A stretch of 64,000 nucleotides of DNA from positions 124,001-188,000 of the forward strand of contig JAXGZF010000003.1 in NCBI GenBank assembly GCA_040771865.1, written 5' to 3'. The position numbers were made by a program, and so were the translations under genes. The stretch is from Desulfobacterales bacterium. GTDB lineage: Bacteria > Desulfobacterota > Desulfobacteria > Desulfobacterales > UBA2245. The notes under the pieces were generated by a model. It made no database searches and was not told the DNA's origin. It worked only from the letters and a program-made list of their open reading frames with translations. Shown here piece after piece: positions 2,501 to 49,352 of the stretch (position 1 is the first letter of the stretch; every line of letters begins with the position of its first letter).

Positions 2501-2535
2501 GCAATTCCTGTTGTTTATTGTCTTCAAGAAAAAAT

Positions 2536-3465: not shown

Positions 3466-3829
3466 AAGAATCTTTCCACCAGAAATCATTAGCGCTGACC
3501 GGATCATAACAGCGTTTTTCGCCGTTGATCCATATCGGAGAAGCGATGGAGACCTCGTCGCGGCCGCAGCGCATCAGACGGTCACAGCACATGATCCAGC
3601 CCGCAATGGAACCGTGCTTTTCGATCGCTTCCACACAGTAGGCCGAACAGCTGGGGTTCATAGCGCACCGATCCCCATCGGCCCCGGAAAGATATTTCTG
3701 GAAAAACCTTACCGGCGCCGCGCTCCAGGCACCGGGGGCCGTATCCACTGCGGCGGGGTTCGGGGAAACCGAACAGCCCATAAATAACAATGCCGCTATG
3801 CCGATGAGCCGGCACCGTCTCAGGTTCAT
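3452..3829 (-). CDS. YidD-like (membrane protein insertion efficiency factor domain) protein with lipoprotein-type signal
   Basis: FFQKYLS..DGDRCAMNPSCSAY..EAIEKHG...CDRLMRC matches the YidD Cys pattern. N-terminus RRCRLIGIAALLFMG|C resembles a lipobox. Confidence 0.75.
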   Translation of the reverse strand: MNLRRCRLIGIAALLFMGCSVSPNPAAVDTAPGAWSAAPVRFFQKYLSGADGDRCAMNPSCSAYCVEAIEKHGSIAGWIMCCDRLMRCGRDEVSIASPIWINGEKRCYDPVSANDFWWKDSYERK

Positions 3830-4125
3830 AATCGGGTCTATTTCCTCAAACCGCTTCACTTCCAGGCCCCTGAATGGATCTTCTTGTGCATTCTTTTATT
3901 CCCCTGCTTCCTACCAGAAAACGATGCTGAAAACAAATCGGATTGCCCGTAAATTCCACAGGAGCTTGCCCGGTCATGTTTTCATGTGAAAAATCGGCAA
4001 TTCCGGAGCAGCCGGCGGTTCTCAGCAGGCTATAACGGGGAAAAAGGCCATTGGATTTTCGAATGCGGGGATTGGTATTCCGGGGCTCTTTGCGCACGGC
4101 TCATTCAGGAGACGAATACGCATGC

Positions 4126-5868: not shown

Positions 5869-7924
5869 TGGTTTCGACTCCGGATTGATTCCCGGGGGCC
5901 GATGGTTTCAAATAAAGCTTGATGTTGTTTTCGCGCACCGAGTCGTAATGGGCCTTTTTATCCTGATAGACAGCCTCGGCTTCGGCCGGGCTCTCGATCA
6001 CCCTGGGTGTGAGAAATACAAAGAGATTGGTTTTGGAGTTGCCTTTGGCCACGGATTTAAAAAGATATCCGACCAGCGGCACATCCCCGAGACAGGGAAC
6101 ACGGTATTCGGTATTGGTGATGTTGTCGTCGATCAGCCCGCCGATGACTACGGTATTACCGTCTCGGACGATCACCGTGGTGTCCACGGTGCGCTTGAGC
6201 GTGGTGGGCCGGTAATCCGTTGATGATTCCAGGTCCGTGACCTCCAGAGAGATGTTCAGCCGCACCATCCGGTCCTTGGTGATCTGGGGCGTTATTTTCA
6301 GCGTTTTTCCGACATCCTTGTATTCAAAGGAGTTGTAGGTATCGTTGTCTGTGGTCGAGGTGCGGGTTTGAAACGGCACGTTCTTGCCGACCGTGATTTT
6401 GGCCTCCTGATTGTCGGTGGTCAGCACCTGCGGCGTGGACAGAATGTGAACGTCCTTGTCCTTCTTGTAAGCCTGAATCACCGCCCCGATGCTGGGAAAT
6501 GAGATGCCGCCGATAGACAGCGCCTCTCCGAAGATGCCCATGGAAAAACCGGGGGGAAGCGGTACGCCCTTTTTTATCGTTGTCGTTCCAACCACGGTCT
6601 CGGTTGACAGATTCTGGTAACCCTCATCCCCGCCGGAAGCGCCGCCGCTGAATCCGCTGCCATAAACCGCGTCTCGATTGTTAAAGGTCGTGTCATCGCC
6701 CACCGCCCATTCGGTTCCAAGTCGGAAATCCTTGTCCACGTTGACTTCCATGATCAGACTTTCGATATAGACCATGGCGCGGGGGATATCCAGCTTTTTG
6801 ATGATGTCTTCGAAGACCTGGTAGTCTTCCTTGTCGGCCATGATGATCAGACTGTTGGTGGCCTTGTCCGAAGTGATGCGAGATTTCTCAGACACCACCG
6901 GCATGTTCTTGGCAGCCGGCTCCCCGCTTTCCTGCTGTTTGGAGGGAATCTCCTGAAGCACCTTGGCCAGATCCTCTGCATTGGCGTTTTCAAGATAATA
7001 AACACGGATCCTTTCGCTTCCGCGGGGAATCTCCTTGTCCAGCGTGGCAATCAGGTCCTTGATCTTCAGAGTTTTATCCTCTGTGGCCAGAATCACCAGC
7101 GTGTTGGTGCGTTCGTCCGCTTCAAACCGGATCGTATCCTCCGGATTGGTTTTGGTCCGGGGTCCGCCCTTGGTATCCTCGAAGATCGACCGGAGCAGCT
7201 TGACAAAATTTACCGCATCGGCGTATTTGAGCGGAATGATGGAAAGCTGGAGGCCGATACCTTCCACGTCAATGGTTTTCAGTATGCGCATCAGCCGCTG
7301 AATGTTGGAGTGGACATCCGTGATGATCAGAAGGTTACTGGGAGTATAGGCCAGCATGACGCTGTTTTTGGAAATCAGCGGCGCCATGAGCTTTTTGATT
7401 TCTTCGGCATCGGCAAATTTGAGGGGAATCAGCTGGGTGACCACCTTGTCTTCCGGAGATGTCAGCTCCTGATGTAGCCGGGTTTCGATGTTCATGGCCC
7501 GGGCGTCGGGGGAGGGAACGATCTTGATCACCTCGCCGGCAGGAACCGTTGCATATCCGTTTACCTCAAGAACGGACTCAAAAACCTTGTATGCCTCCTC
7601 GACCGAAATCCGGGTGGGCGAAATAATCGTGACCTTGCCCTTAATCCGCTGATCCACGACGAAATTTTTTCCGGTCAGCTCGCTGATGAACTTGATGAAG
7701 ACCATGAAATCCACATCGTTAAAGTCAATGGAAACAAAGCGTTCAGAGGCTGCAAGCGTTTTGTCGGAATCCGGCCGCATAACCTCGGAAGGCTGGGCCC
7801 AGGAAACTGTCGTAGTCAGGCAGAAACACAGAAATGCCGCCGTCCGCACCATCCAACCCATATCCAAATGTCTCATGATTTGCCTCAATTTGTTACCTGT
7901 GTCCCTGTTTTTGGATAATCGCAT
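5852..7924 (-). CDS. gspD: Type II secretion secretin GspD (start uncertain)
   Basis: N0 domain (IDFNDVD...ISELTGKNFVVD), repeated N domains, and secretin C-terminus (LSTPQVLTTDNQEA, VPCLGDVPLVGYLF, FLTPRVI). Confidence 0.95.
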   Translation of the reverse strand: MRLSKNRDTGNKLRQIMRHLDMGWMVRTAAFLCFCLTTTVSWAQPSEVMRPDSDKTLAASERFVSIDFNDVDFMVFIKFISELTGKNFVVDQRIKGKVTIISPTRISVEEAYKVFESVLEVNGYATVPAGEVIKIVPSPDARAMNIETRLHQELTSPEDKVVTQLIPLKFADAEEIKKLMAPLISKNSVMLAYTPSNLLIITDVHSNIQRLMRILKTIDVEGIGLQLSIIPLKYADAVNFVKLLRSIFEDTKGGPRTKTNPEDTIRFEADERTNTLVILATEDKTLKIKDLIATLDKEIPRGSERIRVYYLENANAEDLAKVLQEIPSKQQESGEPAAKNMPVVSEKSRITSDKATNSLIIMADKEDYQVFEDIIKKLDIPRAMVYIESLIMEVNVDKDFRLGTEWAVGDDTTFNNRDAVYGSGFSGGASGGDEGYQNLSTETVVGTTTIKKGVPLPPGFSMGIFGEALSIGGISFPSIGAVIQAYKKDKDVHILSTPQVLTTDNQEAKITVGKNVPFQTRTSTTDNDTYNSFEYKDVGKTLKITPQITKDRMVRLNISLEVTDLESSTDYRPTTLKRTVDTTVIVRDGNTVVIGGLIDDNITNTEYRVPCLGDVPLVGYLFKSVAKGNSKTNLFVFLTPRVIESPAEAEAVYQDKKAHYDSVRENNIKLYLKPSAPGNQSGVETIEEQR

Positions 7925-36460: not shown

Positions 36461-36632
36461 ACCGATATGCCCGATTTGACATCAGATATTTCCCTTGATT
36501 TTCAGGATGTTAAATTTTTTGTATCGGCATGAGGATTTTGTTGATTTGACGAACGCCTGCGATTATATAAACATCCGGGTTCGAAACCAGAACCCGTTCA
36601 GTGAATTTTTTTTCTTCGAAAAGGATTTTCCC

Positions 36633-37664
36633 ATGAATCCCCCGGGCGCAAAGAGGCAAAGATGCATATGGTTGATTGTTATTTTTCTGTTTTCACTGGC
36701 CGGCGCCGGCCATGCGAGGACCCGTGATTTTCGCCTCAGCCCGCAGGATTGTTCGCAGATCGAGGATGACGAAGCCCGTCTGCAGTGCTATGACCATATC
36801 TTCGGTCGCGGTTCCGATCTGCCCGAACTCGAGCCGGCCGAAGAAGAGGGGCCGCCCCCGCTTGAGGATGACTCCTATCTGGCCAAAGTCTGGGAACTGG
36901 ATGAAACCGGACCCCGGGGTAAATTTGCGATCCGAATGCACCGGTCCAATTACGTTCTGCCGGTTTCCTACAATTCGGCACTCAGCGGCAGCCGCTTTAA
37001 AGAGGGCGATTCCGCGATGGATGTCAATGAAACCGAGGTGAAGTACCAGATCAGCATCAAGTCCAAACTCTGGCAGGATGTTCTGGGAAAGGACATGGAT
37101 CTGTGGTTCGGGTATACCCAGCGGTCATTCTGGCAGTTTTACAACTTCGACGACTCCGCTCCTTTTCGCGAGACCAATTACGAGCCGGAGATCCTGCTGA
37201 ATTTCCGTACGAATTTTGACGTGCTGGGCCTCAAGGGCCGCATGGTGAATGTGGGGCTCAATCATCAATCCAACGGCCGTTCCGAACCGACCTCCAGAAG
37301 CTGGAACCGGATTGTGGGGAACGTGGGATTTGAGAAGGGCGATTTTGTTCTGCTGCTCAGCGCCTGGTACCGCATACCGGAAAGCGAAGAGGATGACGAT
37401 AATCCGGATATCGATGATTACCTGGGACCCGGCGAGATTCAGGGCTACTATTTCTGGAACCGGCAGCGCTTCGGCGTGATGCTTCGCAACAGCCTGGATT
37501 TCGACGACAACCACGGCGCCGTGCAGCTCGAATGGAGCTTTCCGCTTTTTGAAAAAATCGGCGGATATATTCAGTACTTCAACGGCTACGGGGAAAGCCT
37601 GCTGGATTACGATTCGAGCTCAAACCGGATCGGAATCGGCTTTATTCTGACCGACTGGAATTAG
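36633..37664 (+). CDS. pldA: Outer-membrane phospholipase A1 (OMPLA)
   Basis: Signal peptide, YTQRSFWQ, PFRETNYEPE, catalytic HQSNG, SRSWNR and GYGESLLDY. Confidence 0.93.
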   Translation: MNPPGAKRQRCIWLIVIFLFSLAGAGHARTRDFRLSPQDCSQIEDDEARLQCYDHIFGRGSDLPELEPAEEEGPPPLEDDSYLAKVWELDETGPRGKFAIRMHRSNYVLPVSYNSALSGSRFKEGDSAMDVNETEVKYQISIKSKLWQDVLGKDMDLWFGYTQRSFWQFYNFDDSAPFRETNYEPEILLNFRTNFDVLGLKGRMVNVGLNHQSNGRSEPTSRSWNRIVGNVGFEKGDFVLLLSAWYRIPESEEDDDNPDIDDYLGPGEIQGYYFWNRQRFGVMLRNSLDFDDNHGAVQLEWSFPLFEKIGGYIQYFNGYGESLLDYDSSSNRIGIGFILTDWN

Positions 37665-37718
37665 CGCCCGGCCTTTAAACAGCGGGCAACGCTGGATGAC
37701 AACCTCAGGCGCAGATTT

Positions 37719-38126
37719 TTAAAGCTCTTTTTCCGTTGCAAGGCAGAGCCTTTCCGCTCCAGCCGCCTTGGCAAGATCCATGACCTTGACCGCATGGTTC
37801 AGGATCACGGCCCTGTCCGCCTTAATGACCACCAGTTTGTCCTTTTGCCCTCCGATGAGTTTTTTCAGCTCGGCAAACAGAATGTTCAAGGGGGTTTCCT
37901 GGTTCATCAGGTATGCCCTGCCTTCTCTGTCGACGTAAATCGTAATCTCCTGCTGGGTTTGAGGGGCGGCAGCCTTTGCCTGCGGCAGTTTGATCTTGAT
38001 CCCCTCGTCGACCATGAAATTGGTGGTCAGCAGAAAATAGATCAGCAGCATGAACACGATATCAATCAGCGAGGTCAGGGGCGCCTGAATCTGGTAAGGC
38101 TGTTTCTTTCGAGACAGTAATGCCAT
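37719..38126 (-). CDS. exbD: Biopolymer transport protein ExbD
   Basis: TSLIDIVFMLLIYF TM with the conserved Asp, LPQA and VIKAD. Confidence 0.93.
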   Translation of the reverse strand: MALLSRKKQPYQIQAPLTSLIDIVFMLLIYFLLTTNFMVDEGIKIKLPQAKAAAPQTQQEITIYVDREGRAYLMNQETPLNILFAELKKLIGGQKDKLVVIKADRAVILNHAVKVMDLAKAAGAERLCLATEKEL

Positions 38127-38205
38127 GTGTTATTCCTTTAAAGGAATGCAGGGTTGAAATTTCAGACCGCAAGACGATCATAAAATCCATCGAAGCCGCG
38201 GCGGT

Positions 38206-38841
38206 TCAGTGGATCCGGCCGTTATTCGAAGCCATCGAACCCCTGCCGAATGCCTTGATAAAAACAACCGCTCCGGCCTGCAACCGGGCCTCGTATTTAT
38301 CGATTCTGGAAATCAGGTAACTGTGAGCCACCATGGTGGGAAGGGCTACGGCAAGTCCCAGAGCCGTCGTGAGCATGGCCTCCCATATGCCGCCTGCCAG
38401 AACCGCCGCATTCACCTTTCCGCCCATCTGCTGAATGACCATGAATGCCTTGATCATGCCCAGAACAGTTCCCAGAAGGCCCAGAAGGGGGGCGATATTT
38501 CCCATCGTTGCAAGGGCCTGAACATAAGATGAAAGGCTTCGGACCTCTTCGTCCGTTGAATGGGCGATAACGGTTTCCAGAGTCTCCCGGTCCTGGTCCT
38601 TGACCTCGATTGCCTGCGCCAGCACCCTTCCCATGGGCGAGTTGCTTTGAATCAGCATTTCGTACGCTTCCTGATCCTGTCCCGACTCCATCATGGCAAC
38701 GGTTTTTTCAGCCAGTCCCGCGCCGCGGCTTCGAAGCCGGGTGAAACGGATCAGCCTTTCCACAAAAATGGCGAGAGAAAGAACGGAACATAATAAAATC
38801 GGGATGACTAGGACCCCGCCTTTTGATAAAAATTCGAGCAT
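38206..38841 (-). CDS. exbB: MotA/TolQ/ExbB proton channel protein
   Basis: APLLGLLGTVLGMI.AF and GIWEAMLTTALGLAVALP motifs. Confidence 0.93.
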   Translation of the reverse strand: MLEFLSKGGVLVIPILLCSVLSLAIFVERLIRFTRLRSRGAGLAEKTVAMMESGQDQEAYEMLIQSNSPMGRVLAQAIEVKDQDRETLETVIAHSTDEEVRSLSSYVQALATMGNIAPLLGLLGTVLGMIKAFMVIQQMGGKVNAAVLAGGIWEAMLTTALGLAVALPTMVAHSYLISRIDKYEARLQAGAVVFIKAFGRGSMASNNGRIH

Positions 38842-38897
38842 GTATTACCTCCGATAGTGTGTTTCAGTTTTTTTGTTCCGCCAGTATAAAATTCCGA

Positions 38898-39602
38898 TCA
38901 TGTCAGCTCGAACACGACGGCCAGAACCAGCCGGATGGGCTGATTCTGCGTGAAAATGGTCGTGGGCGGCGCCGGAAAAGGCGATGCTTTTTGAATGGCC
39001 TCAACCGCCGCATCATCGAGGATTTTGTGGCGGGAACTTATTCTGATTTCGATCGATGATACCGTTCCGTCGGGATCGATGGCAAATTCCACCGTGATGC
39101 GCCCCTCTATGTGGCGACTCTGGGCGGAAACCGGATATTTCTTGAATTGTTCGATTTTCAGCCGGACCATCTCGAAATAATCTTCCGCGGTTCCGAAGTC
39201 GCCGCTGGCAAGCGGCTCGGCCTGCCACCGTCCGATTTGAAGACCCGGAAGATTCGAGACCGGATTGTCGGCGGATATGGATTCAACGAGGCTGTCGGGC
39301 ACCGTTTTGTCCGCAGGATCGAGGCGGATCGGTTGAATGGCCGGAGGAGCGATGCGGTTCATTTTGATTTCTTCAACCACTTTCGGACGGATATGTGGAT
39401 TCGGGCGATGCCTCGGCCTTGGAATGTTGCGGACCTCGGGCGCCGATATGTTTCGAATGGCAATCTCGATGCAGCTGACGGCGTTTGAATGATACAGGCC
39501 CGCAATATGCAGAAAAATCACGAGGTGGAGGCAGACCGAGGGGATGATCAGGCCTCTGAGCAGCCAGTTGGGCTTGGTTTTATGATGGGATTCGATCTGC
39601 AT
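38898..39602 (-). CDS. tonB: Energy transducer TonB
   Basis: TM with SxxxH (SVCLH), Pro-rich linker, and YP..AQ...IEG.I.V.F.I.PDG C-terminal domain. Confidence 0.9.
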   Translation of the reverse strand: MQIESHHKTKPNWLLRGLIIPSVCLHLVIFLHIAGLYHSNAVSCIEIAIRNISAPEVRNIPRPRHRPNPHIRPKVVEEIKMNRIAPPAIQPIRLDPADKTVPDSLVESISADNPVSNLPGLQIGRWQAEPLASGDFGTAEDYFEMVRLKIEQFKKYPVSAQSRHIEGRITVEFAIDPDGTVSSIEIRISSRHKILDDAAVEAIQKASPFPAPPTTIFTQNQPIRLVLAVVFELT

Positions 39603-39670
39603 ACGCCGATTTGTCAGAATCTTTTTTCCTCTTCCGCCGCTGAATGCGAACCGGATTTTGCAGCCGAAGA

Positions 39671-41338
39671 TTACCGCTCCACATCGGGCGTACCGTCGAA
39701 ATCGAGATCTTTCGATTGCCTGACCAGCGTTTCGGATTCATCATATTCTTCCCAGAGATCCGGTCGGCCGTCCTTGTTCGTATCTTCTTCCAGTTTGCAG
39801 AGCCGGTTGTTCTCGTAATAAAACCAGATATCCGTTTTCCCGTCTTTATCGGAGTCTTTTTCGGCTTTATAGGCCTGCCCGCTGTTGTCATAATGCCAGG
39901 TCAGGTTCATGCGGCCGGTAAAGCCCTCGTCTTCCCTGCTTTGAATCAGACGTTCCCGGTCGTCGTAGCTCTCTTCCAGATCCATGATTCCGTCGCCGTT
40001 GGAGTCGATCTGTTTCACCACCAGGCGCTGATCGCGGTAAAAAAGCCGATGCTCGGGTTTTCCGTTGAGATTCGAGTCCAGCTCGATGATGGTCGACCAT
40101 TCCGGCTTCTGAAGCCACTGGGTGATCTCGAACCGGCCGTCATAATCCCTGTCTTCAAGGATTTTAAATGGTTTTCCATTTTCGTGGAAAACCTTGAGAT
40201 CGGTTTTCCCGTCATGGTTTTGATCCTTTTCCGTACGGATCATGGCTTCGTTTTCGTCATAAAACTGTTTTGCGTCGAACGCGCCGTCCAGATTCGTATC
40301 GGATTCCATGAGCCGGCGTTTTCCGCTGGTAAAATGTATCCTGACATCCGGGGTTCCGTTCCGGTTCGTATCCCGGGTCTGAAGATGGATCTCGGAATTC
40401 CGGTAAAGGGAGACGGACTCCCGGAATCCGTCCCCGTCTTCGTCCCATTCCACGCGAAGCGGTTTTCCGGATTCAAACGTCCGGATCCGGTCGATATTCC
40501 CGTCGTTACGGGTGTCTTCCCGTATCTCCTGAGGAAGACCGCCCCTGTCGAACCGGACAAAACAGTCCATCTTTCCGTCCAGATTCGTATCCTTTTCCAT
40601 GGCGGCGGACTTTCCGCTCGTAAATCGGGTGACGATGTCAAAGCGCCCGCTTCCGGTCGAATCCTTTTTCTGCTCGGTTATGACGCCCTTGCTGTAGATC
40701 CGGATCGTTTCCATGCGGCCGTCCTTGTCCAGATCGTGACGGCTTTCGGCGGGAAGTCCGCCGGCATCGTAGTGAATGATTTTTTCCGGCTTTCCGTTCC
40801 CGTCGTCATCGACCTCGCACTGCTCCGGCTTTCCGTTCCGGTAGGTCTGGCGAACATTGGGAATCCCGTTTCCATCCGAGTCGCGGGTGTAAAGCACGGT
40901 TTTCCCGTTTTCCAGGTGATAGACGGAATCCAGGCGTCCGTCGCCGGTGGAATCTTTTTCAATGCGCCGGGGCTGCTCGTTTGAATCAAACAGGATGATC
41001 CGGTCAATTTTTCCCGACTCCGCATAATGCTCGTGGCGGGAACGTTTCTGGTCTTTGAATTCGTCGCGGCTTTGGATCTGTCCGTTTGCACGGGTCTTTT
41101 CAATGCGGGTCAGAACGCCGCGTTCGTAATGCTGAAACTGGTCCATGATCCGGTCATGATCGCTGTCCAGCTCCAGTCGAATCAGGTTTCCCGAGGCGTC
41201 GACATGGGCGATCTGATCGATATGCCCGTCATGATTCAGGTCTTTTTCGATGCGCCGCTCCGCACTCACAGCTGCGGGAAGCATCGGAACAATAAGCAGG
41301 GCAAAGGCAATGCCCCAGAATGACAGACCGGACTTCAT
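39671..41338 (-). CDS. Exported repeat protein with ~22 tandem ~23-aa units carrying Dx[DN]x[DN]G loops
   Basis: ATG 41338 overlaps the DUF364 stop (ATGA). Signal peptide MKSGLSFWGIAFALLIVPMLPAAVSA. Repeats include DLNHDGHID, DTNLDGKMD, DQNHDGKTD, DSDKDGKTD and DLDFDGTPD. Confidence 0.85.
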   Translation of the reverse strand: MKSGLSFWGIAFALLIVPMLPAAVSAERRIEKDLNHDGHIDQIAHVDASGNLIRLELDSDHDRIMDQFQHYERGVLTRIEKTRANGQIQSRDEFKDQKRSRHEHYAESGKIDRIILFDSNEQPRRIEKDSTGDGRLDSVYHLENGKTVLYTRDSDGNGIPNVRQTYRNGKPEQCEVDDDGNGKPEKIIHYDAGGLPAESRHDLDKDGRMETIRIYSKGVITEQKKDSTGSGRFDIVTRFTSGKSAAMEKDTNLDGKMDCFVRFDRGGLPQEIREDTRNDGNIDRIRTFESGKPLRVEWDEDGDGFRESVSLYRNSEIHLQTRDTNRNGTPDVRIHFTSGKRRLMESDTNLDGAFDAKQFYDENEAMIRTEKDQNHDGKTDLKVFHENGKPFKILEDRDYDGRFEITQWLQKPEWSTIIELDSNLNGKPEHRLFYRDQRLVVKQIDSNGDGIMDLEESYDDRERLIQSREDEGFTGRMNLTWHYDNSGQAYKAEKDSDKDGKTDIWFYYENNRLCKLEEDTNKDGRPDLWEEYDESETLVRQSKDLDFDGTPDVER

Positions 41339-42084
41339 GGGAATAAAGTTTTTCCTCCGCCCCAGAGAACATGGGTTACGCCTTGAACCATTCGAAATGA
41401 ACAGCCCGAGGCGATGCATATTTGGGCCGTCGGTTTATCGCTGACGATGCTTCCCGCGAGTGCACAAAAACCCATGCGAAACAGGACCCGCGCCATCGGA
41501 GTGCTGGGGCCGACCATAATTTTTACGGCATTTGAAGATATGTGTGAAAGAATTTCCCCCAGCGTTCCGTTGGCCAGCGTGGTAGCGGTGATGGCCACGA
41601 GATCGGACTGAGGCAGCACGTCCGGCGACTGGCCGGCGTCGATGTCTCCGGGCCGGGGGTATTTTTCGAGCACCCGGAATTGTGCAAACTGGTCTCCCAT
41701 CTGCTCAACAAAGGGAAAATGTCCGATCACGGCGACATTTTTTCCTTTTCCGTATTCGAGAATCAGATCCGAAGCATTGCGGTCGATCAATTCGGCGGCG
41801 GGCGGATCAGGCAGCAGCGAATTGACGGCCGCCAGCCCCAGAGAGGCACGAACCGGATCCGGACTCAGCAGAAAACGGGCCATTTCCTTGGCTGATTCGG
41901 GCAGGCTTCTTTCAGGGAAATCATCGACCGAAAGCGGATGTTTTCCGATCGCCCATGTGGCGATTCCCATCTTGGCACTTTCAACGGCGACGATATGGCT
42001 GCCCATGATTAGGTTTGTAACCGGATGATCCGGAATCGGATCGAGTTCATCCAGTATGGCGTTCAAGATGTCCTGGTGTTTCAT
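41335..42084 (-). CDS. DUF364 / Rossmann-like putative heavy-metal chelation protein
   Basis: SLGLAAVNSL, KNVAVIGHFPF, VAITATTLANGT and MVGPSTP motifs. Confidence 0.85.
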   Translation of the reverse strand: MKHQDILNAILDELDPIPDHPVTNLIMGSHIVAVESAKMGIATWAIGKHPLSVDDFPERSLPESAKEMARFLLSPDPVRASLGLAAVNSLLPDPPAAELIDRNASDLILEYGKGKNVAVIGHFPFVEQMGDQFAQFRVLEKYPRPGDIDAGQSPDVLPQSDLVAITATTLANGTLGEILSHISSNAVKIMVGPSTPMARVLFRMGFCALAGSIVSDKPTAQICIASGCSFRMVQGVTHVLWGGGKTLFP

Positions 42085-42100
42085 GATGTTTCTCCAGAAT

Positions 42101-42667
42101 TCAAACACGCGGTATCTTCTGGCAGGTTTCCAGTATTAAATTCAAAAGCCTGTCCGATGCATTCGGTTCATCCGCCCGGACCTGGGGCGGTCGGTCGAGA
42201 TTCCAGATTCTGCAGACATCATTCACCAGTCCGGTTCGAACCACCCATATGTGGATCGCATCTTTCAATTGAAGCAGCGGCGTCAGAAAAGGCGCCCATC
42301 CCATTCCGGCGATTTCCAGGCGACCGACCTCATCTACGACAATAATTTCAGCCCCGGCGCAGGATTCAACGGACAGGGCGCGCCGGCCGGCTTTAATGCC
42401 GGATGAAAAAAACTCGAACGGAACTGTATTCCGGCCGTCGTTTATGACGCGACGGGCCAGCGGAACGCTTTTCCCGTATTTGAGATCGATCAGAATAAAT
42501 CCGCTTCGAATGTTGCTTTCCCAAAGCCCCCTTGCCAGAATGCCTGCGAGTTTCAGCTTTCGCTGTTTCAGAACCGGAATCAGCCCCTCGATAAAGGAGG
42601 ACTTTCCGCCTTGCGTATTTCCCGTGACAAGGATGATTCGGGGGCCTGAATCTTCGAAATGCATCAC
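42101..42667 (-). CDS. P-loop NTPase (NTPase_1 / DUF2478-like)
   Basis: ILVTGNTQGGKS Walker A and IIVVDEVGRLE..G.GW Walker B. Confidence 0.78.
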   Translation of the reverse strand: MMHFEDSGPRIILVTGNTQGGKSSFIEGLIPVLKQRKLKLAGILARGLWESNIRSGFILIDLKYGKSVPLARRVINDGRNTVPFEFFSSGIKAGRRALSVESCAGAEIIVVDEVGRLEIAGMGWAPFLTPLLQLKDAIHIWVVRTGLVNDVCRIWNLDRPPQVRADEPNASDRLLNLILETCQKIPRV

Positions 42668-43470
42668 GGCAGCGACTCCCGGTCCTGATCCTGCGGTACG
42701 ATGTCGGCCGGCAGGAATATCTGTACCGCGTCCGAGAGGCCGATCTTCTGCGTTTTGGAATCATACAGCTCGCTGACGTTGAAACTGGTCATGACCTCCT
42801 CGGTTTTTCCCTGAGCCACAATGCGTCCGTTTTTCAGCATGACCACCTGGTCGGAAAACAGCAGGGCCAGGTTGGGGTCGTGCATGGTCGCGATAATTCG
42901 GGAGCCCCTGTCCCTGCAAAGACGCTTCATCCGGTCCAGCATGCGGTACCGGTGATTGAAATCAAGATGATTGGTCGGTTCATCCATTAGCACGGTGGCA
43001 GAACTCTGAAGCAGGGCTCTGGCCAGAAGGGCGATCTGCCGTTCTCCTCCGGAGATCTGATTGTAATTCCGTTCGGCCAGAAAACCGGCGTTGAGGGTTT
43101 GCAGTGCGTCCAGGGCCATGCGGTAGTCTTCGGGACCCGGGCCGGCCATCATTTTCAGAAACGGGGTCCGTCCCATGACGACGAAATCGATGACGCTGAA
43201 CGGAAAAATATCCGTATGCTCCTGCGGCACCATGCTGACCTGCCGGGCGATCTGCGCCTGAGAGACGGTTCCCAGATCCATGCCGTCTAAGGAAATGCGC
43301 CCGCGGTACGGTTTCAGAATGCCGTTGAGGCAGTGCAGCAGGGTGGTTTTTCCGGAGCCGTTCCGCCCGAGAATGGCGCAGAAGGTTCCTGTTTTGACTT
43401 CAAAGCTGATGTCTTCCAGAACACGGCGGCCATTGTAGCTGAAAGACACGGATCGGCACAAGAGCGTCAT
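42664..43470 (-). CDS. FecE/FepC-type ABC transporter ATPase
   Basis: GRNGSGKT, ISGGERQ, MDEPTNHLD and MHDPNLA. True start at ATG 43470 overlaps the permease stop. Confidence 0.92.
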   Translation of the reverse strand: MTLLCRSVSFSYNGRRVLEDISFEVKTGTFCAILGRNGSGKTTLLHCLNGILKPYRGRISLDGMDLGTVSQAQIARQVSMVPQEHTDIFPFSVIDFVVMGRTPFLKMMAGPGPEDYRMALDALQTLNAGFLAERNYNQISGGERQIALLARALLQSSATVLMDEPTNHLDFNHRYRMLDRMKRLCRDRGSRIIATMHDPNLALLFSDQVVMLKNGRIVAQGKTEEVMTSFNVSELYDSKTQKIGLSDAVQIFLPADIVPQDQDRESLP

Positions 43471-44525
43471 ATCCATCCACTCCTGCGGTTTTTGTACAGC
43501 AGATAGACAAACAGCGGCGCTCCGGCCAGGGCTGTAATGATGCTGACCGGAAGTTCCGCGGACGTGATCGAACGGGCGAGCATGTCTGCCGCCAGAAGAA
43601 AAATGCCGCCGATCAGCATGGTGATCGGAATCATTCTCGAATGATTCGGCCCGACCACGGTTCGGGCGATATGCGGAATCACCAGTCCGATCCAGCATAC
43701 CTGTCCGCAGGTGGAAACGGTGACCGCCACCATCAGCGAACTGATGGAGATGAAAATGATTCGATACAGGGTCGGATTCATGCCCAGAGACCGGGCCTGA
43801 AGGTCTCCCAGAGAGAGCACGTTCAGCCGGTACCGAAGCGCATGAACCAGAATCAGCCCGATGCCGATGGTCGGCATGATAAGGTACAGGTCGTTCCATT
43901 CCACCCGGCTCAGGCTTCCCATGATCCAGAACACGATGGCCGGCAGTGCGCTGTAAGGATCCGCCAGGTATTTGAGAATCATGAGCAGTGCGTTGAACAC
44001 CGATGTGGCCACTAGGCCGGCCAGGATCAGCACGAGAATGGGTCTGACGGCGACCATTCTGGCGATGCCGACGGCCAGGAATACGGCCGCCAGTCCGAAA
44101 ACAAATGAGAGTATTCGGACCAGCAGAAAGGAGTTTCCGGGAAGAATCAGGCCCAGGGCCGCGCCGAATGTGCAGCCCGCCGATACTCCCAGAATGTCCG
44201 GAGACACCAGCGGGTTTCGAAACAGGCCCTGATAGACCGCGCCGGAAACCGACAGTCCCATGCCGACAAATATCGCCAGCAGTCCTCTCGGAAAACGGAT
44301 CAGGGTAAACACCTGGGCCTTGGAAAGAAGTTCTTCGGGAACCGGGCTCCCGAACAGGGACGAGCCGACAATCGTCATCGCTTCGCTCAATCGGATATCC
44401 AGGCGTCCGACCATTAGTGAAAGCAGAAACAGTCCCGCCAGCAGAAAGACCAGCAGAACGGTCAAATACCGCGTGTTGTGAAAAAAGCCCGCAGCGGGTT
44501 TTGAGTCGGAGACCGGTTGTGTCAT
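43467..44525 (-). CDS. FecCD/BtuC-family ABC permease
   Basis: IRFPR, QGLFRNPLVSPDILGVSAG, WIMGSL and WIGLVIPH motifs. Confidence 0.94.
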   Translation of the reverse strand: MTQPVSDSKPAAGFFHNTRYLTVLLVFLLAGLFLLSLMVGRLDIRLSEAMTIVGSSLFGSPVPEELLSKAQVFTLIRFPRGLLAIFVGMGLSVSGAVYQGLFRNPLVSPDILGVSAGCTFGAALGLILPGNSFLLVRILSFVFGLAAVFLAVGIARMVAVRPILVLILAGLVATSVFNALLMILKYLADPYSALPAIVFWIMGSLSRVEWNDLYLIMPTIGIGLILVHALRYRLNVLSLGDLQARSLGMNPTLYRIIFISISSLMVAVTVSTCGQVCWIGLVIPHIARTVVGPNHSRMIPITMLIGGIFLLAADMLARSITSAELPVSIITALAGAPLFVYLLYKNRRSGWI

Positions 44526-44538
44526 ATGCCTTCAATAT

Positions 44539-44569
44539 CAGGAGCCCCTTCAGCTGACGGGGCTGCCTG
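44539..44569. other. Intergenic stem-loop between binding-protein and permease genes
   Basis: CAGGAGCCCC...GGGGCTGCCTG imperfect inverted repeat. Confidence 0.5.
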
Positions 44570-44584
44570 TAAAAGTTCAAAAAA

Positions 44585-45694
44585 TTACGGGCCCAGGACG
44601 TCGTCCAGCCGGCCCCCCATTTCCGTAAAGGATCTGGAAAACAGAATTTCATGAAAACCATCGATTTCTTTGATTAAATCAATATCATGAAACCGGTCCG
44701 GATACAGTCTCTTTCCGGCCCAGAGCACGCCCAGCACGGACAGGGGGGATGGAAAGTCCCACGGCGCAAGACTGGATGGAATGCAGAAAAATTGGCCGAA
44801 TTTGACGGCCTCGACTTCGGCCAGTTCGGGTTTGCCGAGATATTTTCCGGCGGACGATCGAATCTCCCGGCAGGCAAACACCGCATCCGGGTTCCATTGA
44901 ACGAGCTGCTCCGGGGAAATGGACTTGAAAAAACCGGTCAGGTCATGGGCCGCGTTGATTCCGCCGGCTTGGGAGATCATTTCATCCTGAAGCATATCGC
45001 CGGGGGCGGTCGTGAAAAACCCCTCCGGCCCAGCGTAATACACCGTTTTGCGCTCTTGGGCTTTCAGACCTGCGGTCCGGGTATGGACCATGTCCATGAC
45101 ATGATCGATCGCCTGAATCACCGTATCCGCCCGTTCAGGGCAGCCCGCCGCGCGGGCGATGATGCGAAGCGTTTCCTCGATGCTGGCCAGGCTTTCCGGC
45201 AGAATCACGATGGCCGGAATTCCGGACCGGACCAGCCGGTCTGCCGTCAGAATTCCGTCTTTCTGGGCGTAAAGGATCACCAGATCGGGCTTGAGAGATA
45301 TTACGGTCTCCATGTTCAGGCCCGTGGAGCGGTTGCCGATTTTCGGAAGCAAGCTCATGGCCGGATATACCGCCGTGTTGATCCGGACCCGGGGCGAGAA
45401 ACTGTCCACCGCGACCAGGCGGTCGGCCAGCCCCAGAGACAAAATGCTGAGCGTGGCCGGCTTGAAGGTCGTGATGATGTGCTCGGCCCTGCCGGAAAGG
45501 GCGACGTTCCGGCCGGCCATATCCACGATCGTGTATTGGGTTTGGGCGAGTGCGCTTACGGTAATGCAGCAGGCGATCAAGCCGGAACTCAGAATGCCGA
45601 GCAGCCATGTCCTTAAGTGGCATCCGGCCGATGACTGGATGGTTTTTTGAATCATCATGTTCGAATCAAACCCTTGTTTTTTTAATAGGTCCAT
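44585..45694 (-). CDS. Periplasmic binding protein, helical-backbone (BtuF/FhuD/TroA class III); start likely a downstream Met
   Basis: IVDMAGRNV, NMETVISLKPDLV, EQLVQWNPD and WDFPSP motifs. Confidence 0.9.
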   Translation of the reverse strand: MDLLKKQGFDSNMMIQKTIQSSAGCHLRTWLLGILSSGLIACCITVSALAQTQYTIVDMAGRNVALSGRAEHIITTFKPATLSILSLGLADRLVAVDSFSPRVRINTAVYPAMSLLPKIGNRSTGLNMETVISLKPDLVILYAQKDGILTADRLVRSGIPAIVILPESLASIEETLRIIARAAGCPERADTVIQAIDHVMDMVHTRTAGLKAQERKTVYYAGPEGFFTTAPGDMLQDEMISQAGGINAAHDLTGFFKSISPEQLVQWNPDAVFACREIRSSAGKYLGKPELAEVEAVKFGQFFCIPSSLAPWDFPSPLSVLGVLWAGKRLYPDRFHDIDLIKEIDGFHEILFSRSFTEMGGRLDDVLGP

Positions 45695-45735
45695 TTTCTC
45701 TTCGGAAAACGTCTGAACCGGAATTTCCGCCTGAG

Positions 45736-45775
45736 CGGAACCGGCTTTCCGCGGTGTTATAGAAAACCGGTTCCG
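45736..45775. other. Stem-loop downstream of the TonB-dependent receptor gene (mRNA stabiliser or partial terminator)
   Basis: CGGAACCGGCTTTC / GAAAACCGGTTCCG, 13 of 14 bp complementary, no U-tail. Confidence 0.55.
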
Positions 45776-45790
45776 TCTGGAGGAATGACA

Positions 45791-47773
45791 TCAGAATGTG
45801 GTGCGCACCAGCGCAAAAAAGGTGCTGCCTTCTCGAGGATATCCGTTTTTATACATGTAATCCTCGTCAAAAAGGTTCTTCACCCCGGCCTCAATGGTCA
45901 TGAATTTTGCGGGCTTCACCATGATCTTGGCGTCCACGGTCCAGAACCCGTCGATGGAATCAAATTCGCCGTCGCTGTTTTCCTGATACCGTTCGGAGTT
46001 CCACTGGACTCTGGCAAAGGCCGAGAGCCAGTCGTTGAATTTGTAATGATCGCTTATGTAAAGCTGGTGTTCGGAAACCTCTTCCAGTTTGTCGCTGATC
46101 CGGTCATCCGACCGGTTTTCGGCGTCCAGGTAGGTGTAATGGCATTCAATCTCGTTCTTCGGAATAATGCCAGTCTTCAGAATCAGCTCGAATCCCTGGT
46201 ACCGGGCCTCTCCGATATTCTGATACTGGTCGGTACCGTCCGAAAGTTCTTTTTGCACGATCTTGTCTTCGACATCCGAGAGGAACAGATTCGCCTGAAA
46301 GAGAGAATCCGCCGGCAGGGGTTTTTCGATGCCGACCTCGTAGTTGGTCGCTTTTTCGTTGGCCAGATCGGGATTGGGCGTATTGCCGCCTATTTCACTC
46401 GAATACAGCTCATGCATGGTCGGGAAACGGGTTTTCTGGCCCACGGATGCATGCAGCACGGTATCCTCGAACACGTTCAGGTACAACCCGGCCTGGGGAT
46501 TGTAGGCGTCCTCATCGTCCCGTACAGGTTCGCCGTTGGCGTATTCCGGACACTGAAGGTCGTAGCTGATGCCCAGCACCAGAGAAAGCCGGTCGTTGAA
46601 CTTGATGTCGTCTTCCAGACCAAGGGAGTACATTTCGGTCTCGTATTTTTCCCAATCGTCGCCACGATCGCCCTGAGCCTCATGAACGTCCTTCTTGTAA
46701 TGAAAAGCGGCGCTGATGGTCTGATTGGCAAGATGCCGGGACCGCAGCGTCAAAGATCCGCCGTCGCTGTGATCGTCATAGATGCTGTGGAAAGCATATC
46801 GTTTTGTCTGAGAGCTGTAGGTGCCGTCATCATAAGAATCCAGCACATTGTAGTATTCGTCGTGAAAGGCCCTGATTTTGGCGGAAAATTGTTCCGTGAA
46901 GTCGATGTTGCCGATCAGGTAATAGGTATCTTTGTCCCAGTCGGTAAACCGCCAGTACCGGGTTTTGTCGGCCAGCGACGCCGACGGAGGCAGCCCCTTT
47001 TCCATGGATACGGTGTTGACGCCGATGGCGTATTCCTGATTGTCGGTGGGCGTAAAGCCGATTTTTAACGCTCCGCTTTTCTGCTCCACATCCGAATTGT
47101 CCCGAAGGCCGCCGTCTTCAATGGCGTTCGCATCAAAGTCGTCTGAAAGCCGGAATCCGTCGGAATTCAGATACCCGCCGCTGAGCATGAAATAAAATTT
47201 ATCCAGCCTGGATCCCAGGTTGATATTCGTATGATACGCTTTTTCTTCCGCGTATCCGAATTCCATCTCGCCCTCGATGGCTTTTTGCGGTTTCATGGTA
47301 ACGATGTTGATCACGCCGCCCATGGTGTTGGGACCGTAGAGCGCCGAGCTGATGCCCTTGGTCAGCGTGATTTTCGACAGGCTGGAGGTGGGCAGGTTGC
47401 CGGTGTCCACATAGCCATCATAAGGTATGTAAATGGGAATGCCGTCCAGAAACGTCGGCACATAGCGTTCGTTGAACCCCCGGACGTTGATGTTCTGCTC
47501 ATTCTTGGAACCGACCGACACGGTCACGCCCGGCAGGGATTCGAGCGCGTCTGAAATGTTCTCGGCGTTGATCAGATCGATGCGATCCTGGCTGACGGTT
47601 TCTACCGTCGATACCTGGGTGATGGTTTCTCCCTTTCCCTCCACGACGACCTCGCCGATATCAAACGTTCCGGCTGAATCCGAGACCGTTGCCGTCTCCT
47701 GGGACTGAGCGGTTGCTCCCCAGAAGCATAATAGCGCCAGGGAGAAAATCCATAACAATGCCTTGCGTCTCAT
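45791..47773 (-). CDS. TonB-dependent outer-membrane receptor
   Basis: Signal peptide, TonB box (EVVVEG), plug motifs (LESLPGV, NVRGF, GGVINIVT), NPDL.NE, GVKNLFD and C-terminal Phe. Confidence 0.95.
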   Translation of the reverse strand: MRRKALLWIFSLALLCFWGATAQSQETATVSDSAGTFDIGEVVVEGKGETITQVSTVETVSQDRIDLINAENISDALESLPGVTVSVGSKNEQNINVRGFNERYVPTFLDGIPIYIPYDGYVDTGNLPTSSLSKITLTKGISSALYGPNTMGGVINIVTMKPQKAIEGEMEFGYAEEKAYHTNINLGSRLDKFYFMLSGGYLNSDGFRLSDDFDANAIEDGGLRDNSDVEQKSGALKIGFTPTDNQEYAIGVNTVSMEKGLPPSASLADKTRYWRFTDWDKDTYYLIGNIDFTEQFSAKIRAFHDEYYNVLDSYDDGTYSSQTKRYAFHSIYDDHSDGGSLTLRSRHLANQTISAAFHYKKDVHEAQGDRGDDWEKYETEMYSLGLEDDIKFNDRLSLVLGISYDLQCPEYANGEPVRDDEDAYNPQAGLYLNVFEDTVLHASVGQKTRFPTMHELYSSEIGGNTPNPDLANEKATNYEVGIEKPLPADSLFQANLFLSDVEDKIVQKELSDGTDQYQNIGEARYQGFELILKTGIIPKNEIECHYTYLDAENRSDDRISDKLEEVSEHQLYISDHYKFNDWLSAFARVQWNSERYQENSDGEFDSIDGFWTVDAKIMVKPAKFMTIEAGVKNLFDEDYMYKNGYPREGSTFFALVRTTF

Positions 47774-48615
47774 TTCGTGTTTCCTCCTGATGATGTTGAT
47801 GCGTTTTGTTGATAACCGGGCTGTTTCCAGGTCATGATCAGGTAAACGGCGATGCCGACAATCATGAGTGGAAACAGCGTGAACACAACATTTTTGGCCG
47901 GATTTCTGGATATAAAAAGAATCGTCCCGGCGGTCGACGATTCCGGATCGGTTTTTCCGACTGAAGGGGGCGGAGTGAAATTTTTCAGCGTAAACTGGAT
48001 GCCGTCGAGAACCAGCGGTTTGAGAAAAGACAGGCGGCCTGATTTCAGAAACAGGTCATTTTTGTACAGGGAGACCTGAACACAATTGGATTCAAAGCTG
48101 AATTCGTCCGATGTCATGGCTTTGATGGGTTTTGTCAGAACGGAGAAGTCGTTTACGAAATGGATCGCATTGGCTGTTACCCGGTATCCGTTTTGCAGCT
48201 CGAAGGACTCTCCCTGCCGGAGCCGGACATTTGCATACCGGAATCCGACCATCAGGCTGGCAAAATGGCATAGAATCACCAGTCCGAATACGATATGAAT
48301 GGCCAGCATGAGCATGGCCGGTTGGTTCATGCGTCTGGAGGTCATCTTGAGAAACTTGTTCCAGGAGCAGAAAATCAGATTGATGCCAAGGGCCGCCGCC
48401 ACAGCGCACAACCCAAAGAACCAGAAGCGGATCAGCGGCGATTTACCATGGGAAACTGAGAGCCAGTCCGGCATCAGATAGTTGTTCATCTGCTGAAATA
48501 TTTCGTAATAACCGGTAGTTGTGAGAACAACCGCCCAGGTGAACCAGACACTCAGAATGATCAGAAGCCAGAGGGAGAAATGAAGGGAGGAGAGAAAATC
48601 AATCAGTTTTTTCAC
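47770..48615 (-). CDS. ResB/CcsB-like membrane protein (short, divergent)
   Basis: FLSSL.FS..LL start, WF...NLI.CS, a TM His (AIHIVFGLVILCHF), a periplasmic domain and C-terminal 'SRNP' plus TM. Confidence 0.6.
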   Translation of the reverse strand: MKKLIDFLSSLHFSLWLLIILSVWFTWAVVLTTTGYYEIFQQMNNYLMPDWLSVSHGKSPLIRFWFFGLCAVAAALGINLIFCSWNKFLKMTSRRMNQPAMLMLAIHIVFGLVILCHFASLMVGFRYANVRLRQGESFELQNGYRVTANAIHFVNDFSVLTKPIKAMTSDEFSFESNCVQVSLYKNDLFLKSGRLSFLKPLVLDGIQFTLKNFTPPPSVGKTDPESSTAGTILFISRNPAKNVVFTLFPLMIVGIAVYLIMTWKQPGYQQNASTSSGGNTK

Positions 48616-49352
48616 AGCAGGCTCCGAATCATCGTCATGGTCAGAAGGAAAACCCCGCTCAATCCGCCGAGCAGGGAACGAATTCGGGCTGCATTTTCAT
48701 TTCTGCCGGGAATGTGAAATGCGATCATGAGATACAGCAGCACCAGAGTGGATTGAAAAAAAACATTGCTCCAGTGCCAGAAGTCCCCCCAGCCCTGCTG
48801 GCACCAGATCATTCCGGAATATTCGGAGATGAGAAAGCAAATGGCGCCAAGGATCAGGTAGTTTCTGCCCCGATGATGCCATGCCGGGTCTGAAAAGTGT
48901 TTTCGTCCGGTTTTCCGGTGCTGAAAGAAGTGACAGGATGAAAACAGCATGAGGGCCAGGGAGATTCTTCGAAATGCGTGAAAGAGAATGACCCAGAGGT
49001 GGCGATATTGGTACTCGTTTTGACCATTGCTTTGGGGACAGAACAGGCAAAAAGACAAAAGGATTAAAATAAAAACATATCCCCAGCGTCTGAGTTCCGT
49101 GTCTGAATCGTCATGGGAGGTACCAAATGAAATCAGGATGCCGAGAATGAAAGTTACCAGCAGCATGGATTCGAAATCCGTGAAAACGGGAATGCGGCTG
49201 CCGGCGTAGGTCATCGCTGCCAGGGCCGATGCGGAACATGCGCAGCCCGCCCACAAGGAATATTTTTCCAGCGAAAACCGCCTTGTGTGAAGGCAAAACA
49301 GAGCCGATACGAAACAGATCAGGGTCAAACAGAAAAAAGATACCGGCTGCAT
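48612..49352 (-). CDS. CcsA/ResC-like (WWD-domain, heme-handling superfamily) membrane protein, divergent
   Basis: RIP.....ES, LFH, GMIWCQQGWGDFWHW (WWD-like) and AFH. GAGGA RBS before ATG 49352. Confidence 0.72.
   Translation of the reverse strand: MQPVSFFCLTLICFVSALFCLHTRRFSLEKYSLWAGCACSASALAAMTYAGSRIPVFTDFESMLLVTFILGILISFGTSHDDSDTELRRWGYVFILILLSFCLFCPQSNGQNEYQYRHLWVILFHAFRRISLALMLFSSCHFFQHRKTGRKHFSDPAWHHRGRNYLILGAICFLISEYSGMIWCQQGWGDFWHWSNVFFQSTLVLLYLMIAFHIPGRNENAARIRSLLGGLSGVFLLTMTMIRSLL

Follow-up and report, generated by a model that had tools for sequence, protein, structure and literature searches.

Why should a bacterium place the gene for an exported protein that is built almost entirely from acidic β-hairpin repeats immediately in front of tonB, and what might such a protein contribute to the Ton system? 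This question is posed by a 64,000-nucleotide (nt) stretch of DNA from a member of the Desulfobacterales (in the following, the window), in which the gene for a repeat protein (REP) is located directly upstream of tonB; the latter begins 68 nt downstream of it on the same strand. An initial annotation of the window had noted this arrangement and had offered three roles for the protein, those of a periplasmic metal sponge, of a ligand shuttle, or of a scaffold for the TonB complex. Of these, the scaffold fits our data best, as tonB, exbB and exbD are the conserved partners of REP while the cargo genes vary; sponge and shuttle are less likely. On balance, we consider it probable that REP is a Sec-exported and soluble periplasmic fourth component of one subtype of the TonB-ExbB-ExbD system, a calcium-stiffened ribbon that would dock on TonB.

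Genetic linkage of REP with tonB, exbB and exbD

We surveyed 151 genomes from 110 genera of the window's own order with presence thresholds of E ≤ 1e-20 for REP and E ≤ 1e-40 for the ExbB subtype encoded in the window, the latter fixed beforehand. REP was found in 40 of these genomes and the ExbB subtype in 38; both were present in 37 genomes, REP by itself in three, the ExbB subtype by itself in one, and neither of them in 110. In 35 of the 37 genomes possessing both, the REP gene is positioned just upstream of the subtype exbB and shares its strand. The two non-adjacent pairs stem from G081, in which the genes lie on two contigs, and from G027, to which we return below. Among the REP-only genomes, G057 and G088 carry REP at the end of a contig, and the match in G069 is a fragment. 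The host genome of the window (G000) harbors a single REP copy, and it also possesses a second TonB system without REP (C5:102436-106217; a receptor, ExbB, and a TonB_C match of 84.9 bits) as well as a Tol-like set (C3:362788-364480) whose match to TonB_C is weak (25.5 bits). Since the second TonB system does without the repeat protein, REP goes with one TonB subtype and not with all of them. Its distribution within the order, 33 of 110 genera, is patchy.

A collection of 80 loci from public contigs, in 73 of which REP was re-found by phmmer, extends this view; the flanks of these loci were scored against the window's own neighbor proteins only. The locus is also present in Desulfosarcina strains (L002 and L010). 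In the loci with a short form of REP, exbB-exbD follows within 700 nt downstream in 20 of 22 cases, and the other two contigs provide no more than 154 nt of downstream sequence, so that all 20 loci that can be evaluated have exbB-exbD following. A long form of approximately 1,000-1,200 amino acids is present in 18 loci, mostly from Myxococcota. It has a tonB-like open reading frame (ORF) directly upstream in 15 of these, with no more than 966 nt available upstream in the other three, and exbB/exbD lie within 1.7 kilobases in 13 of the 18 loci, mostly in divergent orientation. The tonB-like ORF upstream of the long REP in the Myxococcota locus L054 matches TonB_C with 26.3 bits. Small forms (250-420 amino acids) are found directly beside tonB or exbB in six further loci, four from Nitrospinota, one labeled Patescibacteria and one unclassified. 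The idea put forward with the initial annotation that homologs might sit beside tonB or exbBD is thus strongly borne out, both in the genomes of the order and in the short-form and long-form loci.

The linkage is realized in at least four gene orders, REP-exbB-exbD-tonB, tonB-REP-exbB-exbD, REP-tonB-exbB-exbD, and exbD-exbB divergent from tonB-REP. The flanking cargo genes (receptor, ABC importer, DUF364) vary and are present in only some of the REP loci. In L054 we discarded a 358-amino-acid ORF between exbB and the long REP as a wrong-strand artifact that arises from GC-rich DNA; it is the opposite strand that carries the real gene, the tonB-like ORF. In the same locus (2251-6532) and in other Myxococcota loci, genes for an ATP-binding cassette (ABC) ATPase, an ABC-2 permease and an ABC_transp_aux protein (PF09822) adjoin exbD-exbB, and the long-form loci of Myxococcota are possibly part of a larger conserved cluster. 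In a metagenome-assembled genome of Nitrospina (L037, 6001-11333), btuF/D/C-like genes and a gene for a CobQ-like amidotransferase are followed by those for a 645-amino-acid TonB, a 322-amino-acid REP relative and a cytochrome c; this order gives a hint that the REP-linked TonB of this lineage has a use related to corrinoids.

Predicted export and fold of REP

The frame encoding REP is open from 39671 to 41419 on the minus strand and would specify 582 amino acids when counted from its first ATG. The ATG at position 41338, however, overlaps in an ATGA with the TGA stop of the preceding DUF364 gene and is directly followed by a hydrophobic, signal-peptide-like segment that ends in AVSA before a glutamate (cleavage site judged by eye), and for both reasons it is likely the true start. 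The resulting protein has the length of 555 amino acids and the secreted character that had been ascribed to it, and neither Pfam nor NCBIfam scans detected a catalytic domain, in line with the initial annotation. Mature REP would comprise 529 amino acids (61.8 kDa, isoelectric point 4.98) with a net charge of -33, and 13% of its residues are Asp. A hydrophobic N-terminus precedes the first repeat in most of 30 REP homologs, and a lipobox pattern is present neither in REP nor in any of these 30 proteins. Computation from the sequence thus supports REP as an exported, non-catalytic protein.

An AlphaFold2 model calculated with the 30 homologs has a mean predicted local distance difference test value (pLDDT) of 91.4 and a predicted TM-score (pTM) of 0.67; residues 1-25 remain below a pLDDT of 50. 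It contains 44 strands that form 22 hairpins, and no helix after residue 19. Modeled separately, residues 372-555 reach a pLDDT of 95.8 and a pTM of 0.85. REP is accordingly predicted to be one extended, single-layer antiparallel β-sheet of the MORN/OspA type. When the full and the C-terminal models were compared by VIA, a method other than Foldseek, with 48,161 representative chains, single-layer sheets ranked first for both. OspA was matched with Z-scores of 11.4 for the full model (164 aligned residues, root-mean-square deviation [rmsd] 5.0) and 11.8 for the C-terminal model, the G-box (TCP domain) of CPAP/SAS-4 with 10.4 and 9.2, and the sheet domain of TarM/GtfA/SdgB with 9.5-10.8 and 8.6-8.9 (TarM itself 10.8 and 8.9). 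These sheets share only 4-15% identity and no sequence relation with REP; they are much shorter, lack calcium-type loops and belong to unrelated biology. The titles of the structure entries, which report the G-box with a proline-rich motif and SdgB with an SD peptide, indicate that the matched single-layer sheets are peptide-binding platforms.

MORN proteins followed with Z-scores of 7.3-9.5 for the full and 6.0-8.5 for the C-terminal model (radial-spoke/axonemal proteins 7.5-9.5; MORN1 8.2 and 7.7; junctophilin-2 7.3 and 6.7; MORN4 6.0), so that the expectation of a MORN/YwqK-like sheet proved correct at the level of the fold class. Like REP, MORN proteins stack β-hairpin units of 23-24 amino acids into one single-layer sheet, but their units lack the nine-residue acidic loop of REP, and they are cytoplasmic whereas REP appears to be exported. 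Foldseek placed the shells of Rhs/teneurin proteins at the top for the full model (E down to 1.5e-13). Over the whole model, these matches have TM-scores of 0.09-0.17 and rmsd values of 40-48 Å (VIA Z-scores of 5-6.7, rmsd above 40 Å), which reduces them to a local likeness of hairpins. In keeping with this, REP shares local hairpin strips with Rhs/YD-repeat shells (teneurins, the BC component of Tc toxins, Rhs proteins of type VI secretion systems) but no closed shell is evident in its model, and neither a toxin or plug domain nor an RHS match in Pfam was found. No β-propeller is among the fold matches listed; the REP model is a run of hairpins matched best by linear sheets.

Calcium-type loops in the REP repeats

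The 22 units of REP are 24-25 amino acids long, and 20 of them carry a nine-residue loop of the pattern D-x-[DN]-x-[DN]-G-x-x-[DE]. Two degenerate loops of five residues, at residues 83 and 106, lie on the same edge of the predicted sheet as the nine-residue loops, while tight turns of two or five residues line its opposite edge. The count of about 20 recognizable and two degenerate units given in the initial annotation therefore stands. Seventeen copies match a relaxed motif (D.[DNST].[DNST]G) and are spaced by 24, 25 or multiples thereof. Its strict version (D.[DN].[DN]G) has 15 copies, compared with 0.18 on average and three at most when the mature sequence was shuffled 10,000 times. When the 20 nine-residue loops are read from the AlphaFold2 model, Asp occupies position 1 and Asp, Glu or Asn position 9 in every one of them. 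The gene contains no repeats at the DNA level beyond one trivial row of 12 nt, and the units are consequently old and diverged and do not reflect an assembly artifact.

We mapped the 20 loops onto the 30 homologs. Residues with an oxygen donor fill positions 1, 3, 5 and 9 in 91, 90, 92 and 94% of the cells of this matrix, and position 6 is Gly in 85%; at positions 4, 7 and 8, donors are found in just 16, 13 and 7%. Conservation within the loop hence peaks at exactly positions 1, 3, 5, 6 and 9, and Tyr or Phe is present at position 14 in 91%. By its sequence, the REP loop is the DxDxDGxxD hairpin pattern of the integrin-type (FG-GAP; PF13517, PF01839) calcium sites, and the binding of Ca2+ by these loops can be inferred on good grounds. 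In the coordination scheme of the integrin sites, one Ca2+ (or a comparable hard cation) would sit in each loop, with the backbone at position 7 and the side chains of positions 1, 3, 5 and 9 as its ligands. Integrin α-chains and FG-GAP proteins likewise present the nine-residue D-x-D/N-x-D/N-G-x-x-D/E loop between two antiparallel strands, but there the loops belong to a closed seven-bladed propeller, whereas REP would have 20 of them in a row on a linear ribbon.

The loops had initially been described as EF-hand-like. This holds for their conserved calcium-type pattern, but they are not strict EF-hands, because the model provides no flanking helices and Glu is found at position 12 in only 16% of the loop copies. 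A search of PDB sequences with the REP family profile returned only lanmodulin (E = 0.004, 18.8 bits) and one EF-hand protein, at E-values of 0.004-0.005 and at the level of the loop motif. Lanmodulin and EF-hand proteins resemble REP in having DxDxDG-type loops approximately 24 residues apart; EF-hands are helix-loop-helix elements, however, and the REP model is devoid of helices after the signal peptide. The idea that REP might bind lanthanides has the motif-level match to lanmodulin as its sole basis.

Conservation in REP is highest in its last three units, which have a core consensus of VEEDTNxDGKPDLWExYDxSExLVxRxKDLDFDGxPD. As it is their non-loop residues that stand out, a contact to another protein is suggested for this region.

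A possible contact between REP and TonB

Co-folding of REP (residues 27-555) with TonB (residues 40-234), a check that had been proposed at the outset and for which we supplied the alignments ourselves, yielded a score of 0.50 (0.49, 0.50 and 0.51 in the three runs), while the best of three controls remained at 0.00. We grade this as weak support: among solved complexes, 116 of 157 attain the mark set for the procedure, as do two of 215 mismatched pairs, and scores of 0.60 or less were obtained for only 18 of those 157 complexes and for both of the mismatches that pass. At least 37% of the contacts agree between the runs, and the pLDDT of the partner is at least 61. Together with the prior expectation set by gene linkage, the co-fold modestly raises the chances of a direct REP-TonB contact, which we regard as a tentative proposal whose prospects fall just short of even.

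In the TonB proteins linked to REP, the membrane helix is closely followed by a conserved R-x-I-P-R-P motif, at residues 55-63 of the protein from the window; R58 and P61 are invariant among 19 sequences, and I60 and P63 are present in at least 90% of them. This motif is a candidate for a contact site.

A model for the function of REP

These data lend themselves to a model in which REP is exported by the Sec system and remains soluble in the periplasm. There, the ions bound by its loops would neutralize the high negative net charge and lend stiffness to a sheet devoid of a hydrophobic core, and the resulting ribbon, if straight, would be approximately 20 nm long (44 strands at about 4.8 Å each). 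It would then dock on the periplasmic part of TonB. Docking on TonB is favored by the energizer genes as conserved partners of REP, by the conservation of its last three units and by the peptide-binding nature of the sheets that resemble it. Docked in this way, REP might act as a strut, a guide or an adaptor for the motor, and not as a store or a carrier of substrate. A more specific version, in which the calcium-loaded ribbon of about 20 nm crosses the periplasm alongside the TonB linker and is indispensable for transmitting force, strikes us as rather unlikely.

Several observations weigh against REP as a dedicated TonB component. About 26 weaker repeat relatives, from Sorangium, Polyangiaceae, Bacilli and others, have no TonB link. 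The protein can evidently be lost: genome G112 retains the ExbB subtype but lacks REP; in G027, REP lies apart from the exbB subtype and follows a receptor-like ORF (weak Plug match of 17.9 bits, cut-off 23.9); and the REP match in G007 contains four stop codons. Since the genomes are related, the co-occurrence counts overstate their independence. The long forms of Myxococcota (about 1,090 amino acids) would, if straight, extend to approximately twice the width of the periplasm, and a simple ruler spanning this compartment is for this reason disfavored. Co-fold scores of the class obtained for REP and TonB are more often wrong than right unless the pairing is likely beforehand. Finally, no fusion of TonB with REP was found; the search for longer proteins gave three matches, none of them with TonB_C, which is weak evidence, and a Pfam scan of nine long relatives revealed fusions with HEAT, GDSL lipase, cadherin and FG-GAP domains but no TonB_C.

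Alternative functions

REP might instead be a periplasmic cation buffer or metal chaperone, whose 17-20 acidic loops store or pass on Ca2+, a transition metal or a lanthanide, and whose linkage to TonB reflects nothing but a shared metal-uptake regulon. Such a function would agree with the net charge of -33 and the 20 calcium-type loops, with the profile match to lanmodulin and the EF-hand label that some Nitrospinota relatives carry, and with an operon that comprises a receptor, a Peripla_BP_2-dependent ABC importer and a DUF364 gene described as "putative heavy-metal chelation." The cargo genes, however, accompany REP in only some loci, while tonB, exbB and exbD are conserved beside it and REP tracks one ExbB subtype almost one-to-one. 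The match to lanmodulin is moreover limited to the loop motif, the REP model being all-β without any helix-loop-helix, and the strongest conservation resides in non-loop residues of the last three units, which speaks for contact with a protein. We therefore judge this alternative improbable.

Still less probable, in our estimate, is a function in substrate capture, in which the sheet would bind a ligand (a corrinoid, heme or a metallophore) and hand it to a binding protein. BtuF/BtuC/BtuD-like importers and receptors are indeed found near REP in the window and in L021, L025, L032, L037 and L046, L037 also has a CobQ-like gene, and single-layer sheets are known binding platforms, as the matched structure entries document. 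Yet a dedicated periplasmic binding protein is already part of the operon, no pocket-forming domain was found in REP, and, once again, it is the tonB/exbBD context that is conserved and not that of the cargo.

Family assignment and distant relatives

No Pfam or NCBIfam model reaches its cut-off on REP. The best sub-threshold matches are DUF6802 (PF20615; 23.5 bits, E = 5.7e-05, cut-off 27), FG-GAP_3 (22.4 bits, cut-off 26.9), MORN_2 (PF07661; 18.6 bits, cut-off 29.6) and the NCBIfam model Lsa25.6 (NF050087; 85.9 bits in five stretches, cut-off 150). The 102 positions of the DUF6802 model span about four REP units. At E ≤ 0.001, 19 of the 30 aligned homologs match this model, and its cut-off, although missed by the REP of the window itself, is surpassed by the long form in L054 (38.3 bits) and by the Nitrospina form in L037 (30.3 bits). 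No TonB link of this family is on record among the material that we examined, and in the literature searched, subscription papers excepted, DUF6802 is not mentioned, and we found no account that ties the REP family, or a MORN- or FG-GAP-like protein, to TonB. The Atlas clusters nearest to REP come from Thermodesulfobacteriota, Myxococcota and Nitrospinota and bear the labels DUF6802, "VCBS," FG-GAP or EF-hand, the latter being attached to some of the Nitrospinota relatives. At E ≤ 1e-10, an exhaustive search of representatives with REP retrieved 531 clusters, of which 72 remain at E ≤ 1e-30. In four distant relatives (P0056, P0163, P0170 and P0174), the repeat is fused to HEAT, GDSL lipase, or cadherin/FG-GAP/PepSY domains, and these fusions mark the REP-type repeat as a reusable module beyond the TonB-linked family.

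Several REP homologs are named "antitoxin component YwqK" by JGI, and the Leptospira protein Lsa25.6, which is described as a fibrinogen-binding outer-membrane protein (PMC8657130), shares its repeat type with REP below the family cut-off. That REP is an antitoxin or immunity protein of the YwqK/MORN_2 type, or a surface adhesin like Lsa25.6, which came to lie beside tonB by chance, is nevertheless very improbable, as a signal peptide is unexpected for a cytoplasmic antitoxin, no toxin family was detected among the nine neighboring ORFs of the window scanned against Pfam, every family cut-off is missed, neither an outer-membrane anchor nor a lipobox nor a secretion-system gene was seen in the Pfam scan of the window and in the 30 homologs, and the linkage to tonB/exbBD over several gene orders is far above chance.

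Comparison with other Ton systems

How TonB transfers energy from ExbB-ExbD in the inner membrane to the receptors in the outer membrane is debated, and almost all work has been devoted to the three-protein type of Escherichia coli. Additional components are familiar from Vibrio, where TtpC is a membrane-bound protein; REP, by comparison, is predicted to be a soluble, exported all-β repeat protein with calcium-type loops, and it is found in different lineages, namely Desulfobacterota, Myxococcota and Nitrospinota. No REP match carried a Ttp label in our family and homolog searches, in which labels, and not the sequences directly, were compared. According to PMC6957404, the Vibrio TonB2 and TonB3 systems contain TtpC as a fourth protein, and the title of this article names TtpB2 and TtpD2 as essential. 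TtpB, TtpC and TtpD share with REP that they are extra genes within a tonB-exbB-exbD cluster and are tied to one TonB subtype. By analogy, the Vibrio Ttp proteins would be the nearest conceptual counterpart of what appears to be new here, a Ton system with a fourth, periplasmic component in the form of a β-ribbon with calcium loops.

REP is probably a conserved, structurally simple and confidently modeled fourth partner of TonB, which occurs in 33 of the 110 genera sampled from its order and extends to at least two other phyla. As such, it could serve as a handle on two questions, whether TonB needs a rigid periplasmic partner, and whether calcium gates uptake. If the more specific version of our model, with a ribbon required for force transmission, were true, Desulfobacterota, Myxococcota and Nitrospinota would possess a four-part Ton motor whose activity depends on periplasmic calcium. 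The linkage would also furnish DUF6802 with a first functional context and correct the automatic label of a YwqK antitoxin for the REP proteins. As a natural single-layer β-sheet with 20 regularly spaced predicted cation sites, the ribbon may furthermore be of interest for protein design and for studies of metal binding.

The REP operon in the window and its genomic surroundings

In the window, REP belongs to a run of ten minus-strand genes, which encode, in this order, a TonB-dependent receptor, a Peripla_BP_2 protein, a permease, an ATPase, an NTPase_1 protein, a DUF364/DUF4213 protein, REP, TonB, ExbB and ExbD (Table 1). The ATGA overlap of REP with the gene upstream and the lack of terminator-like sites in the 68-nt spacer between REP and tonB fit a single operon. 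Scans of the region 37000-49000 for promoter-like sites (nine versus 7.4 expected) and for terminator-like sites (26 versus 14.9 expected) were otherwise uninformative. Rfam at its gathering thresholds gave no match in the whole window, and thus no riboswitch for the operon.

Table 1. Positions of REP, its segments and the neighboring genes in the window
Feature	Position	Strand	Remarks and basis
TonB-dependent receptor (Plug and barrel)	45791..47773	-	first gene of the same-strand cluster; Pfam
Periplasmic binding protein (Peripla_BP_2)	44585..45694	-	Pfam
ABC permease, BtuC/FecCD-like	43467..44525	-	similarity to neighbors in related loci
ABC transporter ATPase	42664..43476	-	270 amino acids; start at 43476 overlaps end of permease gene
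NTPase_1 family gene	42101..42667	-	Pfam
DUF364/DUF4213 gene	41335..42108	-	"putative heavy-metal chelation" in Pfam
REP gene	39671..41338	-	555 amino acids
REP, putative signal peptide (residues 1-26), MKSGLSFWGIAFALLIVPMLPAAVSA	41261..41338	-	read from sequence
REP, repeat region (residues 33-555)	39674..41242	-	22 hairpin units; motif and model
REP, last three units (residues 495-555)	39674..39856	-	most conserved part; near-invariant columns
tonB	38898..39602	-	234 amino acids; TonB_C 61.8 bits, TIGR01352
exbB	38206..38841	-	211 amino acids; MotA_ExbB 111 bits
exbD	37719..38126	-	135 amino acids; ExbD 100.7 bits
Outer-membrane phospholipase A1 gene	36495..37664	+	PLA1 343 bits

A 665-amino-acid ORF at 42664-44661 on the minus strand was rejected as a stop-to-stop artifact that crosses the permease gene in another frame. 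The genes for the DUF364/DUF4213 and NTPase_1 proteins lie between the ABC importer and REP in the same order in a genome of the same genus (G014, locus L089), and they were undetected in most other REP loci. The phospholipase A1 gene converges on exbD and is the same neighbor in G014. Near-identical DNA is present in metagenome runs from anaerobic digesters and wastewater (word shares of 0.97, 0.92 and 0.69), one of which may represent the sample of origin. Two metatranscriptome libraries contain short contigs only, among them 193 nt identical to the inside of REP (40673-40865) and fragments covering part of exbB (38243-38606) and the exbD end; these contigs are too few, and such libraries can contain DNA, so that they are no proof of transcription. 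The host genome encodes eight receptors with a Plug domain, one of which is truncated where the window ends (C3:187818-188141, from about position 63818 of the window onward). In the one genome that has the ExbB subtype without REP, the region upstream of exbB (locus L087, G112:C21, 3302-7690) contains a tandem duplication comprising genes for a 143-amino-acid response regulator and a 469-amino-acid permease.

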